A stretch of 63,440 nucleotides of DNA, counting the filler. It is 8 parts of 8 records of this genome, joined end to end, with 100 filler letters (N's around TTAATTAATTAA, not from the genome) between each part and the next. Parts side by side here need not be neighbours in the genome. Positions count along the whole stretch, not along the records: positions 15,205 to 28,196 come from SRR31156797_9240; 7 more parts are not named here. One strand, written 5' to 3'. The notes under the pieces are model-generated. The model did no database searches and was not told where the DNA came from. It worked only from the letters and a program-made list of their open reading frames with translations. This document shows positions 12,607-56,520 of this stretch, in pieces. The position numbers and the translations under genes are program-made. Every line of letters begins with the position of its first letter. The stretch's first letter is position 1.

Positions 12607-14094
12607 CTATATTGAAACTTCTTGATCATATCCATGCATCCTGTTGTATATGTCCAGCTTGGCTGTATGAATATCTACATGATTCCCATCAAGTTTTTTT
12701 ATCTCAACAAGACCAAAATTACGGATGATCTTCAATCCCAGTTCATTAGCAGCTTTATCGACATCGATCTTATCACTGGTAATATATTTATCGAATGACC
12801 CATCTATTATCCATCCATACAGTCGGTCAGATTCAATCTCTGCCTCCCTTCTTATCCATTCGAATATTTTCAAATGGAATACAGATGTCAGACAGCTGTC
12901 GCCGAGGGTTCCTTTGTTATTAAATTTTTTGTCATAGACATAATTCATAACAGGTTCAATCATAAGCCTATCATCTATCTGTTTGAACAACCGTACAAAA
13001 GACTCATCCTTAACAAGTAACATGTCTTTATCAGATAAGGTCTTTCCCATGGATGTATTATACTTTTTCATTTTTCGCCTTAGGACTTCATCTGGAATGA
13101 TCTCATATGATAGTTTCTTTTTGGGCTTCACTGGTGTCATTGCTGATCGACCACCACCATTCTTAACTACTCCTTTGACAACACGGAGTTCTTTTTTTAA
13201 TTTTGTTACTTGTTCCTTGAGGTCGGACATTTCTTCCATGGCACTCTTGAACATGGGTGAAAATAATCCCCAGATATCATCTACAACTCCTTTCTTAAGA
13301 TCAGCATGATCTTCAACTGAGAGCTTTTCTTCGTAGACGGTCACCATCTCAACACCAGCCAAGTCACAGAGAATAATCTGTAGTGGCGTAAAATTATATA
13401 CATACCCATCCTCAAATGGTACGGCACGTATTATGCCTTTACTCTTTAATGATTCCCGATACTTTAATACTGTCCGTGGGCTGAAAGGAAATATTTTATC
13501 GTCATCTGTTGTGCTTAATTCTTCCCCTTTAACTAATAGGCACAATAGAAATAGAAGCTCCAACTCCGTAATACCAATCTCTCTGTGTTTGTCGATAAGA
13601 GCATTCGGAATTTGAAGAAAGCCGTAGATAAGAGATTCCTTGGACCAGGGCGAGTCTTTGATATATGTGTTTGGGTATGCTTTTAGTTCAAGTCCCAGTT
13701 GCTCTTGGATGTCAAAATCTACCAATAAGCCATCTATTGGGGAGAGGTCATATTTAGCACTTGATTGCTGTATAATCTCTTTTTTGTTCTTTAATGGCTT
13801 TATCTTATATATAAATCCATCGACGACAAGTTCCTGAGTCATCTTTGATACTCTTGCCTTAATTTTATTTTTTTCGTCATCGGATAAGTTATCCTTCCTC
13901 GAATAGCCTTCCAAGACAATATGAGGTATTCGTCTTGATCTCATATGTCGATTGATTTTGACAATCTTGATAGCTTTCTTATTTGTGATCTTAGCATCAT
14001 TATTTCCTATCAGATGCTTGAAGGCATAGAAAAACTTGTTGGGGACAGAACTTCGTTGTCCCCCCTTTTCAATAAGTGCTTTATTCCATTTCAT
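12607..14094 (-). CDS. Putative replication initiator with DnaD N-terminal-like winged helix
   Basis: GFLQIPNALIDKHREIGITELELLFLLCLL..RTVLKYRESLKSKGII resembles DnaD/phage replisome organiser wHTH; AGGAG RBS. Confidence 0.55.
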   Translation of the reverse strand: MKWNKALIEKGGQRSSVPNKFFYAFKHLIGNNDAKITNKKAIKIVKINRHMRSRRIPHIVLEGYSRKDNLSDDEKNKIKARVSKMTQELVVDGFIYKIKPLKNKKEIIQQSSAKYDLSPIDGLLVDFDIQEQLGLELKAYPNTYIKDSPWSKESLIYGFLQIPNALIDKHREIGITELELLFLLCLLVKGEELSTTDDDKIFPFSPRTVLKYRESLKSKGIIRAVPFEDGYVYNFTPLQIILCDLAGVEMVTVYEEKLSVEDHADLKKGVVDDIWGLFSPMFKSAMEEMSDLKEQVTKLKKELRVVKGVVKNGGGRSAMTPVKPKKKLSYEIIPDEVLRRKMKKYNTSMGKTLSDKDMLLVKDESFVRLFKQIDDRLMIEPVMNYVYDKKFNNKGTLGDSCLTSVFHLKIFEWIRREAEIESDRLYGWIIDGSFDKYITSDKIDVDKAANELGLKIIRNFGLVEIKKLDGNHVDIHTAKLDIYNRMHGYDQEVSI

Positions 14095-15204: not shown

Positions 15205-15572
15205 TTGTTGATAAAAGAAGAGAAAAAGCAAATGAATCTGAAGTGATGAATATCATTGGAGAAGTTGAAGGTAGAGATGTAATTTTAGTAGATGATATGG
15301 TTGACACTGCTGGAACTTTAGTAAAAGCCGCTGAAGTGTTAAAAGCTAGAGGGGCTACTAGTGTAATGGCATGTTGTACTCATGGGGTTTTAAGTGGGCC
15401 AGCATATGAAAGACTAGAACATGGTACGCTTGATGAACTAGTGATCACAGATACAATCCCTTTAAAACAAGATTGTTCAAAGATCACTGTTTTAAGTGCA
15501 AGCAAAATCATTGCTGAGACAATTAGAAGAATTTACAATAATGAATCAGTAAATGATATCTTTTCTGAGTAA
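15205..15572 (+). CDS. prs: Ribose-phosphate pyrophosphokinase (5' truncated)
   Basis: [28 protein letters not shown]-binding motif, CTHGVLSG. Confidence 0.97.
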
Positions 15573-15591
15573 TATTCTAACTCAAACACCT

Positions 15592-15625
15592 AACTAAAGA
15601 AAATCATTAAATATTTTCTTTAGTT
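15592..15625 (+). terminator. Probable intrinsic terminator after prs
   Basis: AACTAAAGAAAAT-8nt-ATTTTCTTTAGTT 13-bp stem. Confidence 0.6.
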
Positions 15626-15756
15626 TCATTTTAAAACTCTTTGCTGTAACCAAGTAGTTATTTAGTTTCAGTATTATAAAAAGTGATTATAGATAAAATA
15701 AAACATTATTTTTATAGAATAAAAATCTTCTCACAAATCATAATAAGGAAAAATTT

Positions 15757-16818
15757 ATGAAAAAAACACTCCTAAGTATGTTTGCAGCAAGTTCTATCTT
15801 ATGTGCTGCTGAATATAATTATGAAGTATCTCCAATGATTGGATATATTGATACTAAAAAAAATGTTGATCTTAAAGATCATAAAGTAATTGGACTTGCT
15901 GGATATAAAAATATGGGAGAGGAGTGTATGTTCGATCAATTAGAACTTGCATTTTTACGAGCTACTAATGTTAGTTATGAAAACTCTACTTTAGATACGG
16001 CTATTAGTCTTTTCTCTTTTAATGGAATTAAAGAATATAACCTTAACGATACTGTAAAGCTTTATGCTCTAGCAGGTCTTGGATATGAGAATATAGATGA
16101 TAGCTATTTTGGAAACGAAAGCAACCCTTTTGCTGATTATGGGTTTGGACTCAAAACAAAACTTACAGATCTCGTGTCATTAAAATTAGATGTAAGACAT
16201 CTTTTAAAATTTAATGGAGAGCAAAATATTCTTTACACAGCTGGATTGATGCTTCCTTTTGGAGAAAAAGTACCAAAGGCACCTGAGCCTAAAAAAGTAG
16301 AAGAGCAACCAAAACCTGAACCAGTAATAGAAAAAGAGCCTGAACCAGTTGTTGAGCCTAAAATGGAAGAGAAACCAAAAGTATTAGATAGTGATAATGA
16401 TGGAGTAATAGACTCACAAGATCTTTGTCCAAATACAATAGCAGGTGCAAAAGTGAATAAAGATGGATGTGAAGTGGTGATTGATCCAGTTGATCTTGAG
16501 GTATTATTTGATTTTGATAGTGCACAGATCAAATCTTATTCAATTGAGAAATTTGAAACGTTTATTGAATATTATAAAACTATCGAAAACTGTAAAATTA
16601 TCATTGAAGGGCATACTGATGATTTAGGAACTGATAAATATAATAAAGGGCTTTCTCATAGACGAGCACTAAGTGCAAAAAAACAACTCATCTCAATGGG
16701 TGTGCCTGAAGATAGAATTATCACTAAAGGGTATGGTGAAACAAAACCAAAAGTACCTAATACAACAGAAGAAAATAGACAACTTAATAGACGAATTGAA
16801 GCAAGTGTAATTAGATAA
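15757..16818 (+). CDS. OmpA-family outer membrane protein (CadF/OprF-like)
   Basis: Signal peptide, beta-barrel, P/E/K-rich linker, DSDNDGVID..DLCPNT Ca-binding repeat, IEGHTD..N..LS.RRA..NRRIE OmpA C-domain. Confidence 0.95.
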   Translation: MKKTLLSMFAASSILCAAEYNYEVSPMIGYIDTKKNVDLKDHKVIGLAGYKNMGEECMFDQLELAFLRATNVSYENSTLDTAISLFSFNGIKEYNLNDTVKLYALAGLGYENIDDSYFGNESNPFADYGFGLKTKLTDLVSLKLDVRHLLKFNGEQNILYTAGLMLPFGEKVPKAPEPKKVEEQPKPEPVIEKEPEPVVEPKMEEKPKVLDSDNDGVIDSQDLCPNTIAGAKVNKDGCEVVIDPVDLEVLFDFDSAQIKSYSIEKFETFIEYYKTIENCKIIIEGHTDDLGTDKYNKGLSHRRALSAKKQLISMGVPEDRIITKGYGETKPKVPNTTEENRQLNRRIEASVIR

Positions 16819-16819
16819 G

Positions 16820-16846
16820 AATAAAGCCTATAAATTAGGCTTTATT
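16820..16846. terminator. Bidirectional terminator between convergent ompA and channel genes
   Basis: AATAAAGCCTA-TAAAT-TAGGCTTTATT. Confidence 0.7.
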
Positions 16847-17638
16847 TTGTTTTAAAATAATCTCTTTTAACTCTTTAATCTCTTGGCGCAATTTTTGAAC
16901 TTCAACTTTGGTATGATCATCACTTGTATCGATCTTTTGTATAATATCACTTTTTTCTTCATCTTTAATCTCATTCATTGCATCTACAACAATTGCAATA
17001 ATTAAATTGATCATAATAAATGTTACAACAAAAATAAATGGAACAAAAAATGTCCAAGCAAGTGGTTGAGTTTCCATAATTGGACGAACTATTCCCATTG
17101 ACCAAGACTCTAATGTCATAATTTGAAATAGTGTATAAAAAGACTCTCCTAATGTTCCAAACCACTGTGGAAAATTTTCTCCAAAAAGCTGCACTGCCAT
17201 AATAGCAAAAATATAAAAAATAAGCATCAATAAAGCCCCAATAGAAGCCATCCCAGGAATAACACTTACAAGAGCAATGACGATCTTTCTCATTTGAGGA
17301 ATAACTGTTACTAGTCTAAAGAGCCTAAATACTCTTAAAACTCTTAATATCTCAAACCCAGCACTTGAAGGGACTAATGAGATTGCAACAATTGTAAAAT
17401 CAAAAAGATTCCATCCATTTTTAAAAAAAGGAAGCTTATAAACATATATCCTCATAGCAATCTCTATTGTAAATATAGTGATCACGATCACATCTACAAT
17501 ATGAAGAAGATCTTCATAATCATACATGATCTCTTTTGAGGTTTCAAGTCCCATTGTGATACCATTAAAAATGATCACACCAATGATAAAGTTTTGAAAG
17601 AATGAACTTTCAACTATTGTACGCATCTTATCATACAT
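16835..17638 (-). CDS. Bacterial voltage-gated sodium channel (NavAb-like)
   Basis: S4 [12 protein letters not shown] voltage sensor, TLESWSMG selectivity filter, C-terminal coiled coil, 267 aa. Confidence 0.95.
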
Positions 17639-17667
17639 ATATTTTTCTCCAACTATAAAGTGAAAAC

Positions 17668-18969
17668 TTATTTTGCCCCAATTCTAAATAAAACAACTTT
17701 AAGTGTCTTTAAAAAAATAATAAAATCCATCCATAAAGACCAATTTTGTATGTACCAAATATCAAGTTGTGTTCTATCATAAAAAGAGAGTTTATTTCTT
17801 CCATTTACTTGCCAAAGCCCTGTGATACCAGGTTTTACCTTCAAAATAATATCCATATTGATTTTATCAATATTGTTTTTCTCATCAATCATATATGGTC
17901 TAGGTCCTATAAGATTCATATCCCCTCTTAAAACATTAAAAAACTGAGGAAGTTCATCTAAAGAGCTTTTTCTTAAAATCTTTCCAAGTCGAGTAATTCT
18001 TGGATCATTTTTGTATTTATGGTATTTTTTATAATGCTCAACTTCATCTTTATTCTTTTTTAAATAATCTTTCAAGATACCATCACTATCTTCATACATA
18101 GTTCTATATTTATAACAACTAAACTGTTTTCCATCTTTTCCTAATCTTTTTTGCTTGTATAAAATAGTTCCATGTGAGTCTAGTTTAATTAAAATATATA
18201 AAAAGAGATGCAAAATTAAAATCAGAGGGAAAAGCAACATTACTAAAAGTTTTTCGACAATCGATTTAATAAAAACATATTTATAATTTAAAAGTCTATT
18301 TTCTATCTGAAAAGAAGAAAGTCGAATATTAAAAAAATCGATTATTTGCGAATTAGAAAAATCAAAATTATCTAGATAGGGGATAAGATAGATATTTGTA
18401 ATATTAGGGGAGTATTTTTTTAAAAGAGCGTCCAATTCTTCGGTAGAAAAATCTTTTGAATATATAAGCACATTGCTATACCCTTTAATAGCAGGTTTAT
18501 ATCCTAAATACCAATTATTTTTTAACTCATTATGTAAAATCTTTTTTGCATTTTTTTTTGCAACAATCTTGATGTTCTTTTTAAAATGTGGAAATTGAAA
18601 TAAAAAATATTTACTAATTCTTTTTGTAAAAGGTAAAATAACTGCTATACTAATAAATAAAAATATTAGATACTCTTTTGAATATGTTTCAAAAGTACTG
18701 TTTAATGAAAGAAATAAAACAACTGCAATAAAAGAATAAAACACTGCTTTATAAATCTGCTTCATCTCCCTCCAAAAATCAAATCTTTGAGAATAGATTT
18801 TTTCATAAAAAAGGAAAAAACATATAATAAAGTTAAACCAAATATATTTTTGGTCAAAAGGAAGAATAGTAGTTTGTTCTAAAATAAAAAGATCAAAAAA
18901 AACAGATGTGATTATATTAATAAATATAATAGATACAAAATCTATAGTAAATAATATTAATATAAACAC
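17668..18969 (-). CDS. Undecaprenyl-phosphate glycosylphosphotransferase (WbaP/WcaJ family)
   Basis: N-terminal TMs; [51 protein letters not shown]. Confidence 0.95.
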
Positions 18970-18980
18970 AAAAAACTTTC

Positions 18981-20294
18981 CTAAAAAATGGCTTGATCAA
19001 TTTTCTTTAAATCTTCTAAAGAGTGAACCATCATCAAGTACTCAACGTAATATCCCATAAACTCTTGAATATTTTTTACAAATTCATAACGAATCTCATA
19101 CATTTTATATTCAGCATCTAAAAGATCTGTTGTATTTTTTAAACCATTTTCAAAACCAATTTTTATAAACTCTAAATAGGTTTTTGATGAGTCATATGCA
19201 TCTTCATATACTTTCATACTATTTGAAGATGCTTCTAATTTTGTTATAGTCTCATCAAAAGCTAATTCTAATTCTTTTTTTGTAGCTTCAAGATCCTCAT
19301 ACGAAGCTTTATTACGAAGCTTTAATGATTGTACTCTAGAATAAGTTGCTCCACCTTGATACAGTGGGATTTTTAAACTTACAATAACTCTTGATAAGTT
19401 TTCATAATCTACACCAATATCATCTGAAACATATTTTGTATATTGTGCATTTAAATCAAGTTTTGGATAGAAAGCACTTTTTGCATTATCAATCTCATCA
19501 GAGGTAAGAGCAATAGTCTTTTTTGCCTGTAAATATTTTAAGTTTTTATTTAACATTTCCTCTTTATTTGTAACAAATAAAAGCTTGTCAAAAGTATTTA
19601 CATTAAACCTTTCTACATCTAATGAAGGTAACTCAATATCATCTAGTTCAACATATTTTTTTAGTGAAGTGAGATATGATTGAAATATTTTTTTCTCTTT
19701 TTCTAAGTCTATTTTTGATCTATTGTATTCTACTTGTGCTTTTAAAAGCTCCATCTTATCTGTAAGTTTCATCTCAAAACGTTTTTGCAAAGTATTAAGC
19801 TGCACTTGAGTAAGTTTTACTTTTACTTTGAGTAGATCAATTTTATTCTTTGAATCTAAAGTTATAAAATAACTTGTTAATGCTTTTTGAAGTATCCCAT
19901 CTATTTCAGACTTCATCTGAACTTCATTTAATTCATATCTAGTCTCTTCTAGACTCAATTTAGAATATATTTCATAATCAAACAAAGATTGATTCACTCT
20001 CAATGTATAATCAAGTGAATCTTCTGATTTAAGTTTATCAATAGGATTTTGTAACTTATTAATCTCATAATTAACCTTATTCATATCAATTGAGGCATTT
20101 ACTTGTGGATAAAGTCTAGACCAAACCTGTTCAATATCCTCTTTTTTCGATTCTAATTGTAATTGTGTTGACTTGATCTTATTTGAATTTTGACTTACCA
20201 ATTCATACAATGAAAAAGGAGTAAGAACTTCCCCTTTCAAAGATACTAACGTTAGTACTAATCCAAGTACAATATTTGAATATCTATTCTTCAT
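18981..20294 (-). CDS. tolC: TolC-family outer membrane protein of T1SS (SapF/PrtF-like)
   Basis: Signal peptide, two OEP repeats (LYPQVN, FYPKLDL, IPLYQGG). Confidence 0.9.
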   Translation of the reverse strand: MKNRYSNIVLGLVLTLVSLKGEVLTPFSLYELVSQNSNKIKSTQLQLESKKEDIEQVWSRLYPQVNASIDMNKVNYEINKLQNPIDKLKSEDSLDYTLRVNQSLFDYEIYSKLSLEETRYELNEVQMKSEIDGILQKALTSYFITLDSKNKIDLLKVKVKLTQVQLNTLQKRFEMKLTDKMELLKAQVEYNRSKIDLEKEKKIFQSYLTSLKKYVELDDIELPSLDVERFNVNTFDKLLFVTNKEEMLNKNLKYLQAKKTIALTSDEIDNAKSAFYPKLDLNAQYTKYVSDDIGVDYENLSRVIVSLKIPLYQGGATYSRVQSLKLRNKASYEDLEATKKELELAFDETITKLEASSNSMKVYEDAYDSSKTYLEFIKIGFENGLKNTTDLLDAEYKMYEIRYEFVKNIQEFMGYYVEYLMMVHSLEDLKKIDQAIF

Positions 20295-21579
20295 TAAATC
20301 CCCTTGTTATCATATCTGTAAATGGTTTTACGAAATAACTAAGAGGTGTTCTTTCACCTATGTTTATCATTACTTCAGCTGGCATACCAGAGACTAAATT
20401 AAAATTATAATCTCTTAACTGTTTCTCTCCATGTTTTGTAACTTCAACTTTAGCTTCATAATAAGGCATCCCTGTTGCTTCATCTATAAAACTATCTGCT
20501 GAAACATGAATCACTTTTCCTTCAATTACATGAGCTTGATTCATATTAAATGCTGAAAATCTCACATCAGCAGTAAGTCCTGTTGTAACTTTATCTATAT
20601 CAGTCGTTTGGACTTTTGCTAAAACCATTAGTTGTGAATTCTCAGGTACAATTTCTAATATTTGTTTTCCTGGTGCTATTACACCTCCAACTGTATGAAT
20701 ATCTAAACCTACTACAACACCATCAATTGGTGATATTATTTTAGTTCTTACTAATTTATCTTCTGTTGCTATTATTTTAGACTTTATATCAGATAGTCTA
20801 GATTTAGTTTCAGCCAAATAATTTAAAGTTTCTTTTTTAAACTCTTTTTCACGTAATAATTGTTGGGTTTTTGTTTCTTCAATCTGCTCTTTTGTTTTAG
20901 CAATTTCTGATTTAGCTTTTGAGATATCACCGGCGAGAGTATTTTTTTCCCTTTTTAATTCTCGAATTCTTACTTTATCTACAAGTTGTTCTTTAAATAA
21001 TATTTCTAATTCAACAATCTCCTCATCTAAAGAAGCTAATCTATTTTGTTTACTGTCTATAAGTGATTCTATCCCTTCTACTTGATTCATAAGTTGCTCG
21101 ATTTTATTTTTTGTGATTGCTTTTTCATCTTCTTGAGATCTTTTTGTATTATAAAAAGTATCTTTTTGATTCATAATCACTTTTTGATCTGTTAATTCAG
21201 CAGGAAATTCAATATTTTCTAATTCTTTATCTTGTGCTTGCAATCTTACATAAAGACCTAAAATATCTTGATACTGACTTTTATAAATATTTAATTGTGA
21301 TTTAATTTGTACCTCTTCAAGCTTAATTAATACATCACCTTTTTTAACTTTATCACCATCTTTTACAAATATTTCATCAACTATTCCACCCTCTAGGTGT
21401 TGTATAGTTTTTTTATCTAAATCGGCAGATACTGTACCTACAGCAACAGATGATGCTGCTAATGGTGCATATGCACTCCAACCTCCAATTAAACCAAAAA
21501 CTATAAATAAAACACCAAATCCAAACTTTATTACTTTTGAAGCATCAGATGATGGCATACTTACTTGTTTATTTTCCAT
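20284..21579 (-). CDS. prtE: HlyD-family T1SS membrane fusion protein (SapE/PrtE-like)
   Basis: KTIQHLEGGIVDEIFVKDGD, ISPIDGVV, GMPAEV..GERT. Confidence 0.95.
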   Translation of the reverse strand: MENKQVSMPSSDASKVIKFGFGVLFIVFGLIGGWSAYAPLAASSVAVGTVSADLDKKTIQHLEGGIVDEIFVKDGDKVKKGDVLIKLEEVQIKSQLNIYKSQYQDILGLYVRLQAQDKELENIEFPAELTDQKVIMNQKDTFYNTKRSQEDEKAITKNKIEQLMNQVEGIESLIDSKQNRLASLDEEIVELEILFKEQLVDKVRIRELKREKNTLAGDISKAKSEIAKTKEQIEETKTQQLLREKEFKKETLNYLAETKSRLSDIKSKIIATEDKLVRTKIISPIDGVVVGLDIHTVGGVIAPGKQILEIVPENSQLMVLAKVQTTDIDKVTTGLTADVRFSAFNMNQAHVIEGKVIHVSADSFIDEATGMPYYEAKVEVTKHGEKQLRDYNFNLVSGMPAEVMINIGERTPLSYFVKPFTDMITRGFNEE

Positions 21580-21582
21580 CTA

Positions 21583-23355
21583 TTAACTCCCTGGCTTACT
21601 TAGCGAAATTTTTGGTTGCTGATTAGGCATTTGTTTAGGCTGCTGTTTTTGTTGTGTATTAGCTGCAGAAAGTTTAGATAATATCTCTTTCGTATCACCA
21701 TACATTTCTAAAACTCCTTGTTTCATAACTGCTAATTTATTTGTTACTTGTAAGATACTTGGTCTATGAGTGATTAGTACTACTGTTGTATTTGAAGCTT
21801 TTAATGACTCAATTGCCTTTACTAAAAGTAATTCTCCTTGTTCATCTAAATTAGAATTTGGTTCATCTAAAACTACTAAAACTGGATTATCATAAATCGC
21901 TCTTGCAAATCCAACTCTTTGTCTTTGTCCACCAGAAAGAGAGGTACCACCCGTACCAATAACTGTATCATATCCATCAGGAAGTCTTAATATCATTTCA
22001 TGAACTCCAGCTTTTTGTGCCGCATCAACTACTTTTTGAGAATCTACCTCATTAAATCTTGCAATATTTTGAGCGATTGTTCCTTCAAATAACTCAATAT
22101 CTTGAGGAAGATAACCAATAAACTTTCCAAGATCTTGCTTATCCCATTGATAAATATCAGCTTTATCTAATCGAACCTTTCCTTGAACTAATGGCCACAG
22201 TCCTAATATTACACGTGCTAAACTTGATTTTCCTGCAGCACTTGGGCCAATAATACCAACAACATCCCCTGCATCTATTTTCATTGAGATCCCTTTTAAT
22301 GAAGGGTTTTGTGCTCCAGGAGGGATTAAGGCAACTTGTTCTAAAAGAATTTCTCCTTTTGGTTCAGGTAGCTGCATATATTCTTTATCTTTAGGAAACT
22401 CATCTAAAAGCTCATTTAATCTACCATATGATGTTCTTGCACTACTAAAACCTTTCCAGCTATTAATAATGAGATCAAGGGGAGCTAAAGCTCTACCCAT
22501 AATAATTGATCCAGCAATCATCATACCTGGACTTACTTCCATCTGAATTGCTAAATATCCACCAAGCCCTAATATTAAAGATTGAAACAACATTCTTGTA
22601 CTTTTTGAGACATTAGACCAAATACCTGCTTTATTACTTGCATCATTTTGAGCATTTAAAAAACCAAAATATTTCTCTTGCCAGTTACCTCTAATAGCAT
22701 TTTTCATACCCATTGCATTTACAACTTCTGCATTTCTCAAATTTCCATCAACATATAAAGTAGAAGATCTATTTAATCCATTTGCTTCTTGTAGTTTTTC
22801 TTTCGTAGAATACTCATTAATAATGGTAAAACATACTAAAACAATTGCTGCAAAAATTGCAAAATATCCAAACATTGGATGAAAAAGGAAGAGAACTGCT
22901 ATATAAATTGGAATCCAAGGTGCATCAAAAAAGGCAAATAATCCATTTCCTGTCATAAATTGTCGTATTTGAGTAAGATCTGACAATGGCATTGATGAAG
23001 CTTTTCCTGGATGTTTATTTGCTAATTCAAATAATGAATCAAATATTCTTTGACTTAATATACTATCAAGTTTATTTCCAACTTTGACTAAAATTTTTGA
23101 CCGTACTATCTCCAAAAGAGCCATAGTAATAAATAGAACAACTACTATCCCTGTCAACATAACTAAAGTATCTTCACTTCTACTTGTTAAAACTCTATCA
23201 TATAACTGTAACATATAAAGTGGTGGTACTAACATTAATAAGTTAATAAATAAACTAAAAAAACCAACTACAAAAAATGATTTTTTTGAAGCTAAAATAG
23301 CGCTTTTAAGCTCACTTTGTTGTTCTTCTTTTTTATTTTGTTTCATTTTGGCCAT
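21583..23355 (-). CDS. prtD: T1SS permease/ATPase (SapD/PrtD-like, no C39 domain)
   Basis: YMLQLYDRVL, FFDAPW, GPSAAGKS Walker A, LSGGQRQR, VLDEPNSNLD. Confidence 0.97.
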   Translation of the reverse strand: MAKMKQNKKEEQQSELKSAILASKKSFFVVGFFSLFINLLMLVPPLYMLQLYDRVLTSRSEDTLVMLTGIVVVLFITMALLEIVRSKILVKVGNKLDSILSQRIFDSLFELANKHPGKASSMPLSDLTQIRQFMTGNGLFAFFDAPWIPIYIAVLFLFHPMFGYFAIFAAIVLVCFTIINEYSTKEKLQEANGLNRSSTLYVDGNLRNAEVVNAMGMKNAIRGNWQEKYFGFLNAQNDASNKAGIWSNVSKSTRMLFQSLILGLGGYLAIQMEVSPGMMIAGSIIMGRALAPLDLIINSWKGFSSARTSYGRLNELLDEFPKDKEYMQLPEPKGEILLEQVALIPPGAQNPSLKGISMKIDAGDVVGIIGPSAAGKSSLARVILGLWPLVQGKVRLDKADIYQWDKQDLGKFIGYLPQDIELFEGTIAQNIARFNEVDSQKVVDAAQKAGVHEMILRLPDGYDTVIGTGGTSLSGGQRQRVGFARAIYDNPVLVVLDEPNSNLDEQGELLLVKAIESLKASNTTVVLITHRPSILQVTNKLAVMKQGVLEMYGDTKEILSKLSAANTQQKQQPKQMPNQQPKISLSKPGS

Positions 23356-23372
23356 ATGGCTTTCCTTGTTTT

Positions 23373-24749
23373 TTATTGTTGCTTTTGACTAGCTAAATTA
23401 AATAATGTATTAATATTATCTAATGATTTCATATGAAGATTAAGAATGTCTATAATTCCACGTCTTACCCATGAAGCTAAAATATCATCACTTAATTCAT
23501 TAAGCTTATCTTTATCAACTACTTTAAATCCATTTACTAAAACTTTCTTTTCTTCATCTTCTCCCACAGAGATTTCTCTCTCCTCTAAAATACCACTTTT
23601 TACAATCTCATTTACAAACTGTTGAGTAATAGTTGCCTGTTGCTCATTTTTTTGTAAAAAATCTATTGCATGGGTTAATAGTTCAGAACGCTCTCCATCA
23701 TTTGTAAAAAGTTCTTTCCCCTCTGATTGAGAAACCAAAGAAGAATCTTCATCAATCATAATTAATCTTTGTTCTGGGTTTTCTTTTGTAGCTGCTAAAG
23801 AAAATGGGTATTTTCTTAAAAAACTTGGTACATAAGGAGTTATCCACTTACCTTCATTATTAATTGCTAAACTTCCACTTCCTCCAAGAGAAACTATAGA
23901 AATAAGTGATGCATTCTCATCTGCTGTAAATACAACAGGAAATGATGATGCAATATGAGCTACCTCTCCTATAGTTACAGGAATAAATGGTGTATTTCTA
24001 GCAAAATCAAGGTTTTCTAATGACTTTACTTTTAAATTTTTGTGTTTTTCTTTGTCTAATATCTGTAAATTTTTATACATTTTTGTTGTTTCCTTTTTGG
24101 GTTTTTTAGGTCGTCCTCTTTTTTGTTCGGAAAGTATCATATTTAAACTTTGTTCTAGCTTTTCAATAAATTCCTTACTCCCTGTTACAGTTTGTTTTTC
24201 TAGTGAGTTTTCAATAAAAGAATAATCTTTAGATGTAATACTTTGAGTCACTTGTTTATATTTTTGAAGTCTTTCTTTTTGAGTATATCCCAAATCTTTG
24301 TACATCTGATGATAAGATACTATTTTATCTTCTTTATCAAGACAATTTTTTTCTTTGCTTGACAGTATATTTGTACTGAAACTTTCAATATAACTCATAA
24401 CACTAAAAAGATAATTTTTAGCTTCCACTATAGAAGACTTATATCTTCCTTCCCAAATTGTTCCTTTACGCTGGTATTGTTTATTATAATATACTGTATA
24501 TTGCCGACATAGTTTTTGCATAAACTTCGGTATCGTATCTACTGTTGCGGGTGTTGCAACAAAACTAAATGATACTTTATCTAAAGAATATGAATGAATG
24601 TCCAATAAAACTTCTTTCATTAGATCATATACTAATTGTACAAATACTTTATAGTCATTTTCACTATTAAATAAAATAATTGAATCAATACTTTGCACCT
24701 TCACATGTGCAGGAACATCTTGTATGAAAACTCTTAACTTTCTAGCCAA
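23373..24749 (-). CDS. sapC: Fusion of an inactivated REP-associated tyrosine transposase (RAYT) domain to a SapC-family domain
   Basis: Likely TTG start at 24749 after AAGGA (MARKLR); GTIWEGRYKS..YIE and RGRPKK RAYT motifs; C-terminal 235 aa has YVPSFLRKYPF, SapC-like. Confidence 0.85.
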   Translation of the reverse strand: MARKLRVFIQDVPAHVKVQSIDSIILFNSENDYKVFVQLVYDLMKEVLLDIHSYSLDKVSFSFVATPATVDTIPKFMQKLCRQYTVYYNKQYQRKGTIWEGRYKSSIVEAKNYLFSVMSYIESFSTNILSSKEKNCLDKEDKIVSYHQMYKDLGYTQKERLQKYKQVTQSITSKDYSFIENSLEKQTVTGSKEFIEKLEQSLNMILSEQKRGRPKKPKKETTKMYKNLQILDKEKHKNLKVKSLENLDFARNTPFIPVTIGEVAHIASSFPVVFTADENASLISIVSLGGSGSLAINNEGKWITPYVPSFLRKYPFSLAATKENPEQRLIMIDEDSSLVSQSEGKELFTNDGERSELLTHAIDFLQKNEQQATITQQFVNEIVKSGILEEREISVGEDEEKKVLVNGFKVVDKDKLNELSDDILASWVRRGIIDILNLHMKSLDNINTLFNLASQKQQ

Positions 24750-24950
24750 ATCTATCCTTAACTCAAAATATATTGTAATCATACACTATTTTTATTTAAA
24801 TTAAATTTAATCCGATACTATTTTATAAAAATAAAATTGGTGCCATATTAAATACATCTAATAAAACTTACTAATTTATACTGATGAAAATATTGACAAC
24901 AGTATGACATAGCTTTTAAATATAATAAAAAATTCACTAAAGGATTTAAA

Positions 24951-25610
24951 ATGTCTATAGTCACTACTTGTAGCCTAGATAAACAAACTATTTTATATGA
25001 AAAGATAAGTAAAGACCTCCAAAACTTATTTACAAATAACACTTCTAAAGAAACGCTTGCAAAACTTACAAAGGATATCTCCTTACTTGTTTCTTCTATA
25101 CTAGAAAAGAACTTCACTCTTTCTTCTTTTTTATCTATTTTAAATGATATCTATTATACCCATACTCATTCACTTAATGTAAGTGTTTATGCTATATGTC
25201 TTGGAAAACATATGGGGCTTAGTCAAAGTCTCCTTGAAGATCTTGCTTTATCAGCTTTATTACACGATATTGGAAAAAGTAAAATTAGTGAAGATATTTT
25301 ATATAAAAAAGGAAAACTTACCCAAAAAGAGTTTTTAGAGGTTTCAAAGCACTCTTTGTATGGATGGGAGATACTTAAAAACATAGGTATAGATAATGGA
25401 AATATTTTAAGAGGGGTTAGAAATCATCATGAAAAACTTGATGGAAGTGGATATCCTGATGCTTTAAAAGGTTCCCAGATACATTTATTTGCTAGAATCA
25501 TTGGTCTTTGTGATGTTTTTGATGCATTATCTACTCAAAAAAAACACCAGGATTCATTTAGTTCTTTTGAAACTCTTCAACTAATGAAACTAGAAATGAA
25601 AAATCCCTAA
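24951..25610 (+). CDS. HD-GYP domain phosphodiesterase
   Basis: THSLNV, LHDIGK, HHEKLDGSGYP, CDVFDAL. Confidence 0.93.
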   Translation: MSIVTTCSLDKQTILYEKISKDLQNLFTNNTSKETLAKLTKDISLLVSSILEKNFTLSSFLSILNDIYYTHTHSLNVSVYAICLGKHMGLSQSLLEDLALSALLHDIGKSKISEDILYKKGKLTQKEFLEVSKHSLYGWEILKNIGIDNGNILRGVRNHHEKLDGSGYPDALKGSQIHLFARIIGLCDVFDALSTQKKHQDSFSSFETLQLMKLEMKNP

Positions 25611-25668
25611 AGATATTATTGTTTCTTGTTATGAAGTAGGATATAAAATAGTTATTGAATAATCTTAT

Positions 25669-26574
25669 TTAGTATTGTATTTGATTCAAACAATGGTTTA
25701 TAGCAACCCCTTCTCGTAACCCATCATCAAATACAATTGATTCAGTCAACCCAAGAACTTCAAAGAAAAGTAAATAGATGGATATTCCAGAATCTATATA
25801 ATCATCTCTACCACTTCCAACCTCTTTTATTAACTCATCTTTTGATAAGGATTGAAGATACTCTTTTCTTAATTGTATCTCTTGTTTATTTAAAAGAGTT
25901 CCATTGACTATAGTTTTATCATAGGTTTTATAATTGAGTCCATGTTTTAATGCGGCTAAGGTGGTTGGAGTCCCTGCAGTACTTATAAAGATACAATCTT
26001 CTTTTTTTAAATGTTTTATAAATGTTTCTATCTCTTGCTTGAAACTTTCAAGCTCTTTTTGTTTATCTATAGATTGAGAAAGTGTCACAATACCATAGGA
26101 AAAACTTTTTAAAAGTGTTTGCTCTTTTTCACAATAGATCAGTTCAGTGGAACCTCCCCCTATATCCAATAAAAAAAACTTTTCTGTTTGAATATTTTCT
26201 CTTTTTAAAGCATACCTCATAGCTAAAAGAGTAAGCTTTGCTTCAATCTCCCCATCAATTATTTGAAATAAAACTCCTGTAAGGGCTTGTAGTTTTTGGA
26301 TCACCTCTTTTGAGTTTTTTGCTTTTCTCATCGCTTGAGTAGTAACTGCTATTGCAGATTTTGGATCATATTGAAGTCTTTGTATACTTTTATCAATAGC
26401 ATCAAGTACTCTTTGTATCGCTTCATCTGAAATTTTTCCAGTAGAGGTAAGACCATCAGCTAAACCAACTGTTGTTTCAAACTCTCCCACAGTTTTTTGA
26501 CTGTCACAATCATATTGTAAAACACGGAAGGAGTTTGAGCCTAAATCAATAGAGGTAATAACGCCAAAGTTCAT
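25669..26574 (-). CDS. ppx: Ppx/GppA exopolyphosphatase family protein
   Basis: IDLGSNSFR, DIGGGSTE, GLREG. Confidence 0.93.
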   Translation of the reverse strand: MNFGVITSIDLGSNSFRVLQYDCDSQKTVGEFETTVGLADGLTSTGKISDEAIQRVLDAIDKSIQRLQYDPKSAIAVTTQAMRKAKNSKEVIQKLQALTGVLFQIIDGEIEAKLTLLAMRYALKRENIQTEKFFLLDIGGGSTELIYCEKEQTLLKSFSYGIVTLSQSIDKQKELESFKQEIETFIKHLKKEDCIFISTAGTPTTLAALKHGLNYKTYDKTIVNGTLLNKQEIQLRKEYLQSLSKDELIKEVGSGRDDYIDSGISIYLLFFEVLGLTESIVFDDGLREGVAINHCLNQIQY

Positions 26575-26704
26575 AATATCCCTTTTTTTGGAGTAAATAT
26601 GAAGTGTATCAAAAAAATAATTAATATATTTTTATGATAAGTATGTTACAATTGCTTAAGGTGGTTAAGAGGTTTAACCGCATTTTCAACACAAGGAGTA
26701 CACG

Positions 26705-27244
26705 ATGAATACAAGTATCGTAGGAAGACATGTAAAACTAACAGATGATTTAAAATTACATGTAGAAAGTACAATTGACACTTTCAAAAAATATAATTTA
26801 GATATTATTTCAGTAAATGCAATAATCTCACAAGAACAAAAACATGGAAAAAATTTAATAACTTTTGAATACGTTTTAAATGTAGCAAACATTGATACAG
26901 TTGTCGTAAAACAAAAAGATAAAGACCTTCATGCGGCAATCGATATTGCAACTGATAGAGTATGTAAGATTTTAAGAAGACATGCAGATAAAGTAAAATC
27001 TCATGATGCTACTAGCTTAAGTGATCTAGCAATTGCAGAAGAAGAAGATTCTATTGCAAAAGAGTTAGAAAAATTTGATAATGAGATTGTACCTATGAAA
27101 CTAGAATCTTATAAACCAATTGAGATCGAAGAAGCGTTAAATGATCTAAAAGGTTCAGAGGAGATCTTTAAAGTATTCTATGATATGGATGATAACTTTA
27201 GAGTTCTTTATAAAATGAAAGATGGACATTTTGGTCTTTATTAA
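26705..27244 (+). CDS. hpf: Ribosome hibernation promoting factor (long HPF/RaiA)
   Basis: IVGRHVKLTDDLK..DLHAAID, C-terminal S30AE domain (F.VF..VLYK..DGHFGL). Confidence 0.95.
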   Translation: MNTSIVGRHVKLTDDLKLHVESTIDTFKKYNLDIISVNAIISQEQKHGKNLITFEYVLNVANIDTVVVKQKDKDLHAAIDIATDRVCKILRRHADKVKSHDATSLSDLAIAEEEDSIAKELEKFDNEIVPMKLESYKPIEIEEALNDLKGSEEIFKVFYDMDDNFRVLYKMKDGHFGLY

Positions 27245-27265
27245 TTAATACCTTTCATAATTTCT

Positions 27266-27298
27266 AAAAAGGGGCTGGGTTTTCCAGCCCCTTTTTTT
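27266..27298 (+). terminator. Rho-independent terminator after hpf
   Basis: AAAAAGGGGCTGG-GTTTT-CCAGCCCC-TTTTTTT. Confidence 0.92.
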
Positions 27299-27414
27299 AT
27301 TTCTAATTATTTCATTTTGATAATCTGTATTTATTAATATATTTATAATTAATATCCCTATATAATAGAACAAATGGAAAATATTTATCCATTAAAACTC
27401 AAAAGGAATTACTA

Positions 27415-28074
27415 ATGAAAAAATATGAATCATACAAATGTCCAAAATGTGGAAACGTAATAGAAGTACAAGAAGTTGGTGGTGGAACTTTAGTATGTTG
27501 TGGTGTAGATATGGAATGTATCACTGAAAACTTAACTGCGGTAAATCTTATGAAAGCATTTGCTGGTGAATCACAAGCTAGAAATAAATATGAATTTTTT
27601 GCAGATGTTGCATTTGAGCAAGGATATCATAGAATCGCTAGATTTTTACAAGAAGCAGCAGATAATGAGAAATACCATGCAATGGCTGAGTTTAAAGCAT
27701 ATAATAAATTAGTAAACGATTTTGAATTTGATACAACTGCTAAAAACTTAGTATATGCAGCTGAGGGTGAAAAATACGAACATGAAATTATGTATCCAGA
27801 GTTTGAAGAGATCGCTAAAGAAGAGGGTCTAAAAGAGATCGCTAGAATGTTCAAAGCAATTGGAAAAGTTGAAGTTGAGCATGAAAGAGAATATAGAGAA
27901 CTTCTTGATGCACTTGAAGCTGAGGGATTCTTTGAAAGTGATGAAGATGAAGAGTGGGTATGTGAAGTATGTGGTCATGTTCATCGTGGGAAAAAAGCTC
28001 CAGGAGCCTGTCCATTATGTAGAGTAGATAAAGAGTATTTCAAAAAAAGAAATAGTGACGTTACAGTTGGATAA
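27415..28074 (+). CDS. rrc: Desulforubrerythrin (desulforedoxin + rubrerythrin + rubredoxin domains)
   Basis: YKCPKCGN..LVCCG; AFAGESQARNKY, EKYH, EVEHE diiron motifs; WVCEVCGH..CPLC. Confidence 0.93.
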   Translation: MKKYESYKCPKCGNVIEVQEVGGGTLVCCGVDMECITENLTAVNLMKAFAGESQARNKYEFFADVAFEQGYHRIARFLQEAADNEKYHAMAEFKAYNKLVNDFEFDTTAKNLVYAAEGEKYEHEIMYPEFEEIAKEEGLKEIARMFKAIGKVEVEHEREYRELLDALEAEGFFESDEDEEWVCEVCGHVHRGKKAPGACPLCRVDKEYFKKRNSDVTVG

Positions 28075-28094
28075 AAGAGTTTATCTCTTTTATC
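28070..28094. terminator. Bidirectional terminator-like hairpin
   Basis: GATAAAAGAG-TTTAT-CTCTTTTATC between convergent genes. Confidence 0.65.
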
Positions 28095-28106
28095 TTATCC
28101 TGTTAA

Positions 28107-28196
28107 CTAAGCAACCCAAATTCGTAATAACTTACAAACTTCATTGAATCTTCTCTCACCTAATTGATTTTTTGCTTCTTTTTTAGATGCTGTACA
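28107..28196 (-). CDS. 3' end of a hypothetical protein (5' truncated)
   Basis: Open frame ..TASKKEAKNQLGERRFNEVCKLLRIWVA* ending at the shared terminator. Confidence 0.5.
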   Translation of the reverse strand, partial: CTASKKEAKNQLGERRFNEVCKLLRIWVA

Positions 28197-55622: not shown

Positions 55623-56520
55623 TTTTTTTCTTCTTATCTCTTTTTACCTTTTCTGCAATACATCTGAATCCAAGCCATTTTTCTGGTTTAGAATAATATT
55701 GTACTGAATCAACATTACAACTATGACTTGCGTAATCTGCGTAACTACCTCCTTTCGCAATACCTTTCTGAGAAATCATTTCTGCAACATTACCAAATAA
55801 ATCATATATATGATTATTATCTCTCAAATAACTAGCAGGAATTAATAATTGTCCAAGCTGGAAGTTTTTATATTTACCTGCTGCTTTCGTTTGTGTTTTA
55901 TAACCATAACTGGGAAATTTAAAATACATAGTATCCTTCTGGTTACTTTTTTGTTCAGACTCTGTTAAACCACTCAAAGCATATTTTTTCCATTCATCTT
56001 CTGTCATTAGTCGAAAAAGATATTTTTCATCACCTTGAACTTTAGTTCTCCACCTACAAAATTGTACAACTTGATCATATGACACTCCAGTTATAGGGTA
56101 ATCTAACAAAATACAATTCTTAGTATAATCTGACTGCTCAAGTTTTCTTAGATCATCAGTTAGAATATCAGCGCAAGTGCTTTTATAATAACCGATAGAT
56201 ATAAATGAATTTTTAGCTAGATAATTAGATTTTTTATCGGACTTACAATTTTTTATATAAAACCATATTTCAGGAAGAACGCAACAACTATCTGGCAATA
56301 TTCTTTCAGCTGCTTCTTCTCCTTCTTGCTCCAAAACCCATGAATAATACGAAAGCCATGAAGCCACATCTACCTCCGTTTGATCTACGTATTTTTTATT
56401 TTCAACTTTAATGGTTGCATAAGGTCCTTTTTGCCCTAATGTTGTAGAAATAATTGGAATAAATAGAACCAATAACTTAAATTTTAATTTCATGTTTTTT
56501 GTTTTAATCTCGAACATCAT
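55615..56520 (-). CDS. FGE-sulfatase (SUMF1/GldK-like) fold protein, putative immunity protein
   Basis: Signal peptide, DQTEV, YPITGVS..FCRWR, RLMTEDEW, YDLFGNVAEM, KGGSY, LGFRC; starts at the RHS stop. Confidence 0.8.
   Translation of the reverse strand: MMFEIKTKNMKLKFKLLVLFIPIISTTLGQKGPYATIKVENKKYVDQTEVDVASWLSYYSWVLEQEGEEAAERILPDSCCVLPEIWFYIKNCKSDKKSNYLAKNSFISIGYYKSTCADILTDDLRKLEQSDYTKNCILLDYPITGVSYDQVVQFCRWRTKVQGDEKYLFRLMTEDEWKKYALSGLTESEQKSNQKDTMYFKFPSYGYKTQTKAAGKYKNFQLGQLLIPASYLRDNNHIYDLFGNVAEMISQKGIAKGGSYADYASHSCNVDSVQYYSKPEKWLGFRCIAEKVKRDKKKKNR

Follow-up and report, generated by a model that had tools for sequence, protein, structure and literature searches.

A gene on the minus strand, at positions 23373 to 24749 of a 63,440-nucleotide stretch of DNA (hereafter the window, that is, the whole stretch analysed, in which positions 15,205 to 28,196 come from record SRR31156797_9240), encodes a Y1/HUH transposase-like domain fused in frame to a SapC domain, at the head of a type I secretion system (T1SS) operon. 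According to our analysis, the N-terminal 223 residues of the product are an exapted Y1/HUH transposase of the terminal inverted repeat (TIR)-associated, RAYT-related lineage, and the fusion is conserved across several Campylobacterota genera under purifying selection. Based on sequence comparison and modelling, we are cautiously inclined to believe that a dimer of this domesticated, dead transposase may bind a fossil transposon end as an operator and control both its own gene and the secretion operon.

Gene layout and fold of the N-terminal domain

The gene and the parts of its product are as follows.

23373..24749, minus strand: whole fusion gene, 458 codons from TTG plus stop; apparently dead Y1 domain, linker and SapC
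24755..24759, minus strand: Shine-Dalgarno sequence AAGGA, five bases 5' of the TTG
24081..24749, minus strand: N-terminal Y1/HUH transposase-like domain of TIRYT/RAYT type, residues 1-223 from the TTG
24564..24572, minus strand: S-F-S, residues 60-62, at the HUH position (alignments)
24390..24392, minus strand: Tyr120, equivalent of the catalytic Tyr, kept, with the following N/Q-P-V lost (profile alignment to ISDra2 TnpA)
24102..24119, minus strand: RGRPKK, basic AT-hook-like motif in a disordered linker (predicted local distance difference test (pLDDT) <50 at residues 213-220)
23403..24059, minus strand: SapC domain PF07277 (Pfam E=2.9e-60, profile positions 1-220 of 220)
23427..23504, minus strand: C-terminal helices of SapC, predicted homodimer interface, residues 416-441 (complex prediction)

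The open reading frame (ORF) from the first ATG spans 23373..24782 on the minus strand. Since the relatives begin at MARK, a position held in the window by TTG (24749-24747), and since this TTG has AAGGA upstream, 23373-24749 is likely the gene, with a product of 458 amino acids (aa), which bears out the coordinates given in a preliminary description of this DNA. A TTG start with the same AAGG box was found in 18 of the 18 orthologous genes inspected.

The RAYT motifs quoted in the preliminary description are all present in the translation, and the Y1/RAYT-type fold that they pointed to is supported by structure prediction. With the AF2 model of the N-domain (pLDDT 91.5, predicted template modelling score (pTM) 0.87), Foldseek returned 25 matches in the PDB at E<=0.001. 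The top match was 4er8_A, a complex of TnpA-REP with a hairpin of the repetitive extragenic palindrome (REP) type (E=7.4e-6), and IS608 and ISDra2 TnpA chains came next. VIA-align, run with the full-length model, also placed 4er8_A first (Z 14.4, root-mean-square deviation 2.8, 150 of 165 residues aligned), the runner-up being IS608 TnpA (2vhg_A, Z 9.3); in the fold searches with this model, the matches were taken up by the N-domain. The profile of an N-domain alignment (A2; 77 rows comprising the window and 76 of 79 loci, with three long ORFs left out) matched ISDra2 TnpA and 4er8 in the PDB at E=3-4e-4, but the full-length alignment profile (A1) found no match there. In the alignment of A2 with ISDra2 TnpA, the HVH of the family falls on HUH and its YIE on the catalytic Tyr.

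The window protein itself gave no match to PF01797 (Y1_Tnp), even with its N-terminal part alone at E<=10. Among 26 aligned proteins scanned singly, 23 matched PF01797 at E<=0.01, the window protein being one of the three misses, and 25 matched SapC. The N-terminal part alone had no match in Pfam, NCBIfam or PDB sequence searches and two weak matches in PHROGs (E about 0.1), to families of unknown function, and a protein atlas search returned SapC clusters only. We therefore base the Y1 assignment on the relatives, which match PF01797, on the A2 profile, which matches TnpA structures, and on the predicted fold. The N-domain keeps this fold together with the W/R/K core, a C-terminal helical extension and the RGRPKK basic linker.

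As had been described, the frame runs intact into SapC, the only Pfam match on the window protein (204 bits against a cut-off of 28.9; residues 242-460 in ATG numbering). Two mis-joined genes were considered and ruled out, as a single open frame is found in all rows of an alignment of 58 fusions (the window, 46 database proteins and 11 loci; a 404-aa fragment, a HisZ-like fusion and five redundant or partial loci were omitted). The two domains are joined by the stretch RGRPKKPKK, modelled at low confidence (full-length model pLDDT 90.7, pTM 0.52), and in the RGRP core G, R and P are each retained in 57 of the 58 fusions and the first R in 53. An AT-hook is a disordered segment in which basic residues surround an R-G-R-P core, and the linker, by its sequence and predicted disorder, fits this definition. 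The RGRP motif occurs in stand-alone relatives of the N-domain too.

A methionine, Met224 (TTG numbering; window 24078-24080), stands at the exact start of the SapC domain, where at least 90% of the fusions retain Met. It aligns with the start of stand-alone SapC proteins and is preceded by an A/G-rich stretch on its 5' side, so that translation might also start internally and yield SapC alone.

Loss of the catalytic site, descent and selection

At the HUH position, the window protein has the triplet SFS and its relatives mostly YFE. No His is left at the two HUH positions in 50 of the 58 fusions, five keep one and three keep HxH, and triplets ending in E were found in 37 (sum of tallied counts). 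HxH is intact in 50 of the 60 stand-alone relatives of A2. The Tyr is retained in 48 of the 58 fusions and replaced by F, H or S in the other ten; the core W, R and K are retained in 57-58 of 58. The window protein lacks NPV(R)A behind the tyrosine of YIE, and the alignments agree with the preliminary description in both the replacement of HUH by SFS and the loss of NPVRAG after the Tyr. We infer that the window protein no longer cuts DNA. Because three of the fusions still carry HxH, the fusion probably preceded the loss of HUH.

The fusion is not unique to this assembly. A search scored on residues 1-240 found 37 proteins, 36 of which are 404-476 aa long and carry SapC, most with a precomputed Y1_Tnp hit; the 37th has 624 aa and a HisZ-like domain. 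A scan of species genomes found 16 fusion loci and 63 loci with stand-alone relatives of about 230 aa, the latter mostly from Gamma- and Betaproteobacteria. The fusion loci are labelled Sulfurimonas, Sulfuricurvum, Poseidonibacter, Campylobacteraceae and Helicobacteraceae, plus one metagenome-assembled genome labelled Odyssella, and the fusion records overall name Sulfurimonas, Sulfuricurvum, Poseidonibacter, Sulfurospirillum and Aliarcobacter. The range is thus wider than the Arcobacteraceae named in the preliminary description, covering several Campylobacterota genera and a truncated form in Campylobacter. Across 401 sampled Campylobacterales genomes, the N-domain family is present in 178, SapC in 64 and both domains in one frame (439-485 aa) in 10. 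Relatives of the N-domain are numerous, with 4814 at E<=1e-3 among 1.84 billion representatives.

In a tree of 103 rows from a quick IQ-TREE search, 18 fusion N-domains form one clade (Shimodaira-Hasegawa-like approximate likelihood ratio test (SH-aLRT) 90), nested among HUH-intact stand-alone proteins of Gamma- and Betaproteobacteria. Within this clade, locus L012, which keeps HxH, branches first, followed by L014 and then a crown group (95*). The simplest reading of these sequences would be one fusion event followed by HUH loss. Some branches are long (window 0.92, L016 1.31, L073 2.05), so that the exact sister group of the fusion clade is unsure. Stand-alone Y1 genes of Campylobacterales were considered as the source or as split forms of the fusion and rejected: they keep HUH, fall in other clades and do not stand beside SapC or T1SS genes.

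The N-domain is constrained. The ratio of nonsynonymous to synonymous rates (dN/dS), computed after Nei-Gojobori for pairs of fusion genes, ranged from 0.067 to 0.27 across the seven pairs with dS <1.1 (0.067 for L002/L013, 0.13-0.15 for L005 against L006, L015 and L011, and 0.22-0.27 among L008, L009 and L099). The SapC domain showed 0.035-0.12, the N-domain being about twofold more relaxed. The low ratios and the intact frames rule out a pseudogene or neutral relic, and the N-domain, for which neutral evolution or frameshifts in relatives had been raised in the preliminary description, displays neither.

HUH has also been lost outside the SapC fusions. A second fusion type joins the same Y1 domain to a HisZ-like tRNA-synt_His domain (613-634 aa; P0038, P0052, P0061, P0092, P0102; L073:8010-9911); its members are labelled Photobacterium angustum and Morganella morganii, and HUH is lost in both that were inspected (P0038, L073). 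A clade of HUH-lost stand-alone proteins of 230-260 aa comprises Microbulbifer L022, L024, L026, L028, L046 and L060 as well as L025 and L063. In this clade HUH is replaced (e.g. by NMIQII) and NPV is lost, and from its sequences it looks like an independent domestication without fusion. In addition, a separate Y1_Tnp gene of 247-270 aa lies about 5 kb 5' of the fusion in three loci of Sulfurimonas type (L001:64-876, L002:2857-3600, L013:2047-2790); it belongs to a multi-copy family of 255-285 aa found across the order (Pfam E=1e-15 in L002).

The upstream inverted repeat and its probable origin

Two features lie between the start of the fusion gene and the neighbouring gene.

24803..24853, minus strand: conserved inverted repeat, candidate operator, with arms at about 24839-24849 and 24808-24820 and an AT-rich spacer
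24772..24800, minus strand: promoter-like boxes, -35 TTTAAA and -10 TACAAT, directly downstream of the repeat (consensus scan)

The 120 bases 5' of 18 fusion genes were aligned. They share an invariant TAnnnT box resembling a -10 element, a TTTAAT-like box and, directly upstream, the inverted repeat, the consensus arms of which are GACTATGGCACC and GGTGTCGGAGTC with an AT-rich spacer between them. The promoter consensus scan of the window gave four sites against 2.4 expected, which is weak alone. A covariance model of the repeat, searched over 296 kb, gave 33 matches, all on either strand of 18 places, one per locus, and no further copy was found in the window or flanks, nor a second inverted copy within the 63-kb window. 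A dispersed REP family was considered and dropped, as the repeat model found no extra copies in the window or flanks. The preliminary description had stated that no REP hairpins flank the gene; this holds for dispersed REPs, but a conserved inverted repeat does stand upstream.

The genes 5' of the repeat vary (an unknown 150-aa ORF, an MFS protein, a sulfatase-modifying/methyltransferase fusion, or divergent genes), and because they differ between loci we assign the repeat to the fusion gene. Taken as a named structure of 14 pairs, the repeat has 81.5% of its 248 cells paired, and sliding the partner arm lowers this to 31-47%; among shuffles of the repeat alignment, 15 of 500 reach this pairing and 14 of 500 reach the covariation score. 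The cells that are not Watson-Crick comprise 41 G.T, 9 A.C and 37 others, and the repeat thus pairs better on the coding strand, where G.T exceeds A.C by 41 to 9.

This strand bias of the wobble pairs bears on a different explanation, in which the element would act as RNA, as a leader or an upstream 3'-end hairpin bound by the Y1-derived domain and controlling termination, stability or translation. Coding-strand folds also beat the antisense ones (L005 -7.8 vs -5.0; L014 -11.9 vs -9.3), and 10 of 14 loci have a co-directional gene whose end falls immediately ahead of the repeat. However, the conserved -10-like box stands downstream of the repeat, loci with a divergent upstream gene retain the repeat as well (window, L004, L008, L009, L016 and L106), and the window scan found no terminator-like site, and we regard an action on the transcript as quite improbable. 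A terminator of the upstream gene is likewise unlikely as the main role of the repeat, given that the upstream genes vary or are divergent and that no terminator-like site was seen in the scan.

As single-stranded DNA, the repeat folds most stably in L012 (-16.7 kcal/mol, z -10.4), followed by L014 (-11.9) and L010 (-10.8). L012, the earliest branch, which keeps HxH, has a perfect 19-bp palindrome, which speaks for another reading, in which the retained Tyr and other ligands would still nick or rearrange DNA at the repeat, for example in a promoter-orientation switch as in S-layer antigenic variation. The sap promoter of Campylobacter fetus inverts, partly without RecA. The persistence of the Tyr in 48 of the 58 fusions, of the full HxH in three and of one His in five would suit such residual processing, as would the Glu that replaces the second His in most relatives (the 37 triplets ending in E). 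In the window protein, though, neither HUH position carries a metal ligand (SFS) and the Tyr is no longer followed by N/Q, the Tyr is not invariant across the family (F, H or S in 10 of 58), and the fusion gene is single-copy with fixed synteny and has no second inverted copy of the element within the 63-kb window. Residual DNA processing therefore strikes us as highly improbable, and we return to the repeat as a candidate operator.

The stand-alone relatives suggest where such an operator might have come from. In the HUH-intact ones, GGGGTCAGAGT-type TIRs flank the gene on both sides, and their core, GGGGTCAGA(G/T)T, was found within 160 bases upstream in 38 of the 57 loci examined, three of these being doubtful by eye. 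The GGGGTCAGA core fits the GGGGWSAS motif that the available text of an earlier study reports for TIRYT elements (PMC3733652). A sequence-only model built from 35 stand-alone repeats was searched over the window and 17 fusion loci (296 kb); it gave six matches at E<=10, all inside the repeat upstream of fusions (L010 E=0.0021; L012 E=0.0069 and, for its left arm, E=0.11; L016 E=0.084; L008 E=0.13; L011 E=0.33). In the window, the paired repeat is present upstream only, and SapC continues in frame where the downstream repeat would stand. We posit that the upstream repeat probably derives from an ancestral transposon terminal repeat.

Concerning the HUH-lost proteins that are not fused to SapC, the GGGGTCAGA repeat is missing upstream in the stand-alone clade (six Microbulbifer loci, L025 and L063), no TIR-like repeat was found in the Morganella fusion L073, and HUH-lost L050 retains downstream TIR copies; this comparison of HUH loss and TIRs rests on few independent events. 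In the HUH-intact relatives, single upstream TIRs (L017-L079, alignment A6) could fold into a small hairpin whose loop, GGTCAGA, is conserved. In its named structure, which shows covariation, 70% of cells are paired against 57% in shuffles, none of 500 shuffles reaches as high, and at one pair 16 sequences have UA where 15 have AU. RNAalifold gave no local hairpin in single stand-alone TIRs, and by eye the GGTCAGA-loop structure was not seen in the fusion repeat.

A candidate regulator of the secretion operon

The fusion gene is followed on the same strand by the genes of a T1SS, as the preliminary description had recognized.

21583..23355, minus strand: T1SS ABC transporter, SapD-like (Pfam ABC_tran, ABC_membrane)
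20284..21579, minus strand: HlyD-family membrane fusion protein, SapE-like (Pfam HlyD_3; synteny)
18981..20294, minus strand: TolC-like outer membrane protein, SapF-like (Pfam OEP)
24951..25610, plus strand: divergent HD-domain gene (Pfam HD_5, HD), not conserved beside the fusion in other loci

The intergenic gaps from fusion to ABC, HlyD and TolC are 17, 3 and -11 bases. ABC and HlyD directly follow the fusion in 15 of the 16 loci and TolC in 14; of the contigs that lack part of this order, one stops within the fusion gene and another after HlyD. The adjacent ABC transporter is 67-82% identical across 15 of the 16 loci. At L106, a stand-alone SapC of 234 aa heads the ABC-HlyD-TolC operon and a 474-aa fusion is divergent (L106:4957-7286). 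The 200 bp that separate the two contain the inverted repeat (39.9 bits on the operon strand), a layout common for a regulator and its target.

In the mechanism that we propose, the protein would dimerise through the C-terminal helices of SapC, and the two dead transposase heads, together with the AT-hook-like linkers, would bind both arms of the fossil transposon end, either as duplex DNA or as a top-strand hairpin. Binding would control transcription of the fusion gene and the secretion operon, and SapC might serve as a signal-receiving or secretion-coupled domain. The homodimer was predicted with a score of 0.41, compared with 0.00 for the best of three controls. Of 30 proteins whose structures were solved as two copies of one chain, 21 attain this mark, as against 0 of 23 that were solved as single chains. 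At least 56% of contacts are common to the runs, and the pLDDT of the partner is at least 79.

A number of observations weigh against this proposal. The dimer is a prediction, computed without the fusion alignment, and the promoter boxes are consensus matches only. To our knowledge, what the Y1 transposases with solved structures bind is a hairpin of single-stranded DNA and not an operator in duplex form. The repeat covaries modestly (0.244 vs 0.203 in shuffles), and RNAalifold recovers seven pairs only (-4.4 kcal/mol). The window copy is degenerate, with 9 Watson-Crick and 2 G.T pairs of 14 and a fold at -4.9 kcal/mol (z -1.5); against the TIR model it scores 6.1 bits with filters off (E=1.6, third of 12 matches), and because of this score its link to transposon ends is by orthology only. 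The co-directional upstream gene found in 10 of 14 loci has its end no more than about 175 bases from the fusion start, in most cases right ahead of the repeat, which could consequently also act on the upstream transcript.

The Campylobacter forms add to these reservations. SapC family proteins of 350-396 aa from this genus (n=15; P0188-P0202; also L100:4616-5713 and L101:4724-5815) head ABC-HlyD-TolC operons, and the 366-aa SapC that heads the same operon at L100 is identical (100%) to a protein that NCBI assigns to Campylobacter sputorum. In the 15 proteins, the first ~130 residues match 127 columns of the N-domain profile (hhalign probability 96.9%, E=2e-10), and they represent a truncated, degenerate Y1 core that has neither the helical extension nor the RGRP linker. 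The repeat model matched weakly at L100 (E=0.13) and had no match at L101. With a truncated domain that lacks RGRP and a repeat that is weak or missing, a DNA-binding role may not be general.

These truncated cores without the basic linker would also be in keeping with a Y1 domain that serves as a structural or protein-binding module, for instance as a chaperone or adaptor that acts on the secretion machine or on what it exports, the repeat then being part of an ordinary promoter or the site of another regulator. SapC occurs mostly without a Y1 domain (most matches in the 64 of 401 genomes are 230-245 aa long), and dN/dS is about twice as relaxed in the N-domain as in SapC, both of which would fit such a module. 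We nevertheless consider it unlikely, as the retained W/R/K core and RGRP are common to the DNA-active relatives, and the repeat, which is similar to the TIRs of those relatives, is found with the fusion at every one of the 18 loci. The HUH-lost Microbulbifer clade, which has no repeat, indicates that repeat retention is not automatic, and this, too, counts against a pure protein module.

Extending the operator-binding proposal beyond the window, the SapC heads of S-layer-type T1SS operons in Campylobacterota could be one-component regulators that arose from a Y1 transposase, in which the transposase head reads the fossil end as operator, SapC dimerises and couples to a secretion signal, and the Campylobacter relic represents a later stage. 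We offer this generalization tentatively, as a possibility somewhat short of an even chance.

Among described systems, the TnpA-REP (RAYT) protein of Escherichia coli (4er8) is the best structural match, and it shares with the window protein that the host retains a single copy of a Y1 protein associated with a palindromic element. In RAYT, HUH and Tyr are intact and REP hairpins scattered over the genome are cleaved, whereas the window protein has SFS and one cognate-like repeat per locus, and adds the C-terminal helical extension, the basic linker and the SapC fusion. The identification as a RAYT, made in the preliminary description, is right with respect to the type of fold, but the closest active relatives are TIR-flanked and TIRYT-like, not REP-flanked RAYTs. 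These nearest sequence relatives, presumably of TIRYT/TnpA-Y1 subclass 2.1, are stand-alone proteins of 230 aa from Gamma- and Betaproteobacteria, at 26-34% identity, and share a GTLWEGRYKS core, Y.WSS, the C-terminal extension and flanking GGGGTCAGA-core inverted repeats; we placed them in the subclass by features described in two sources (Di Nocera 2013, PMC3733652; Quentin 2018, PMC6006769). In these relatives HUH and NPV are intact and a repeat stands at either side of the gene, whereas the fusion has both arms upstream and SapC in place of the 3' repeat.

By its own account, the main survey of this superfamily (Quentin 2018) excluded proteins of unusually great length and any without HuH or Y (PMC6006769). 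As this filter removed long fusions and members without HuH or Y, domestication in the Y1 family may be under-counted; at least two other HUH-loss lineages, the Microbulbifer clade and the HisZ-like fusions, were seen here. In the literature on RAYT, TIRYT, SapC and sapCDEF we found no description of a Y1-SapC fusion, although survey supplements may list such proteins, and none was found in the literature on inactive or domesticated Y1/HUH factors. The architecture can already be found in public databases through precomputed domain hits, so that the novelty lies in the interpretation and the cis element and not in the sequences.

If true, the window protein would be a bacterial TnpA-type Y1/HUH transposase that has lost catalysis, kept its cognate end and been wired into host gene control. 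It would parallel the TldR proteins, nuclease-dead, TnpB-derived repressors (PMC13622181), the common concept being that a protein of an IS200/IS605-type element gives up its catalytic activity and the host retains it to regulate genes. TldR proteins derive from RNA-guided TnpB and are targeted by a guide RNA; the window protein derives from a TnpA-type Y1 transposase, and its proposed target is a fossil transposon end.

The fusion also gives a first testable handle on SapC. In Campylobacter sapCDEF, SapC heads an ABC-HlyD-TolC operon according to the available text of the sap-locus papers (PMC4943207; bioRxiv 10.1101/2024.07.26.605372), which states no function for SapC; no paper on the SapC family as such was found in the literature. 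The Campylobacter S-layer loci have the same gene order as the window; the Campylobacter SapC proteins described above are truncated. If our proposal is true, the Campylobacter relic could bear on the long-unexplained role of sapC and possibly on DNA transactions at the sap promoter.

Beside the window operon, where the neighbours are a sugar transferase and the HD-domain gene, no S-layer gene was noticed, and no systematic search for a substrate was made. On the minus strand of the window, a 495-aa ORF without a Pfam family (12607-14094) lies about 5 kb beyond the TolC gene, and a 2153-aa ORF (56504-62965) combines SpvB, FG-GAP and RHS-repeat domains, a set that occurs in RHS/Tc-type proteins.

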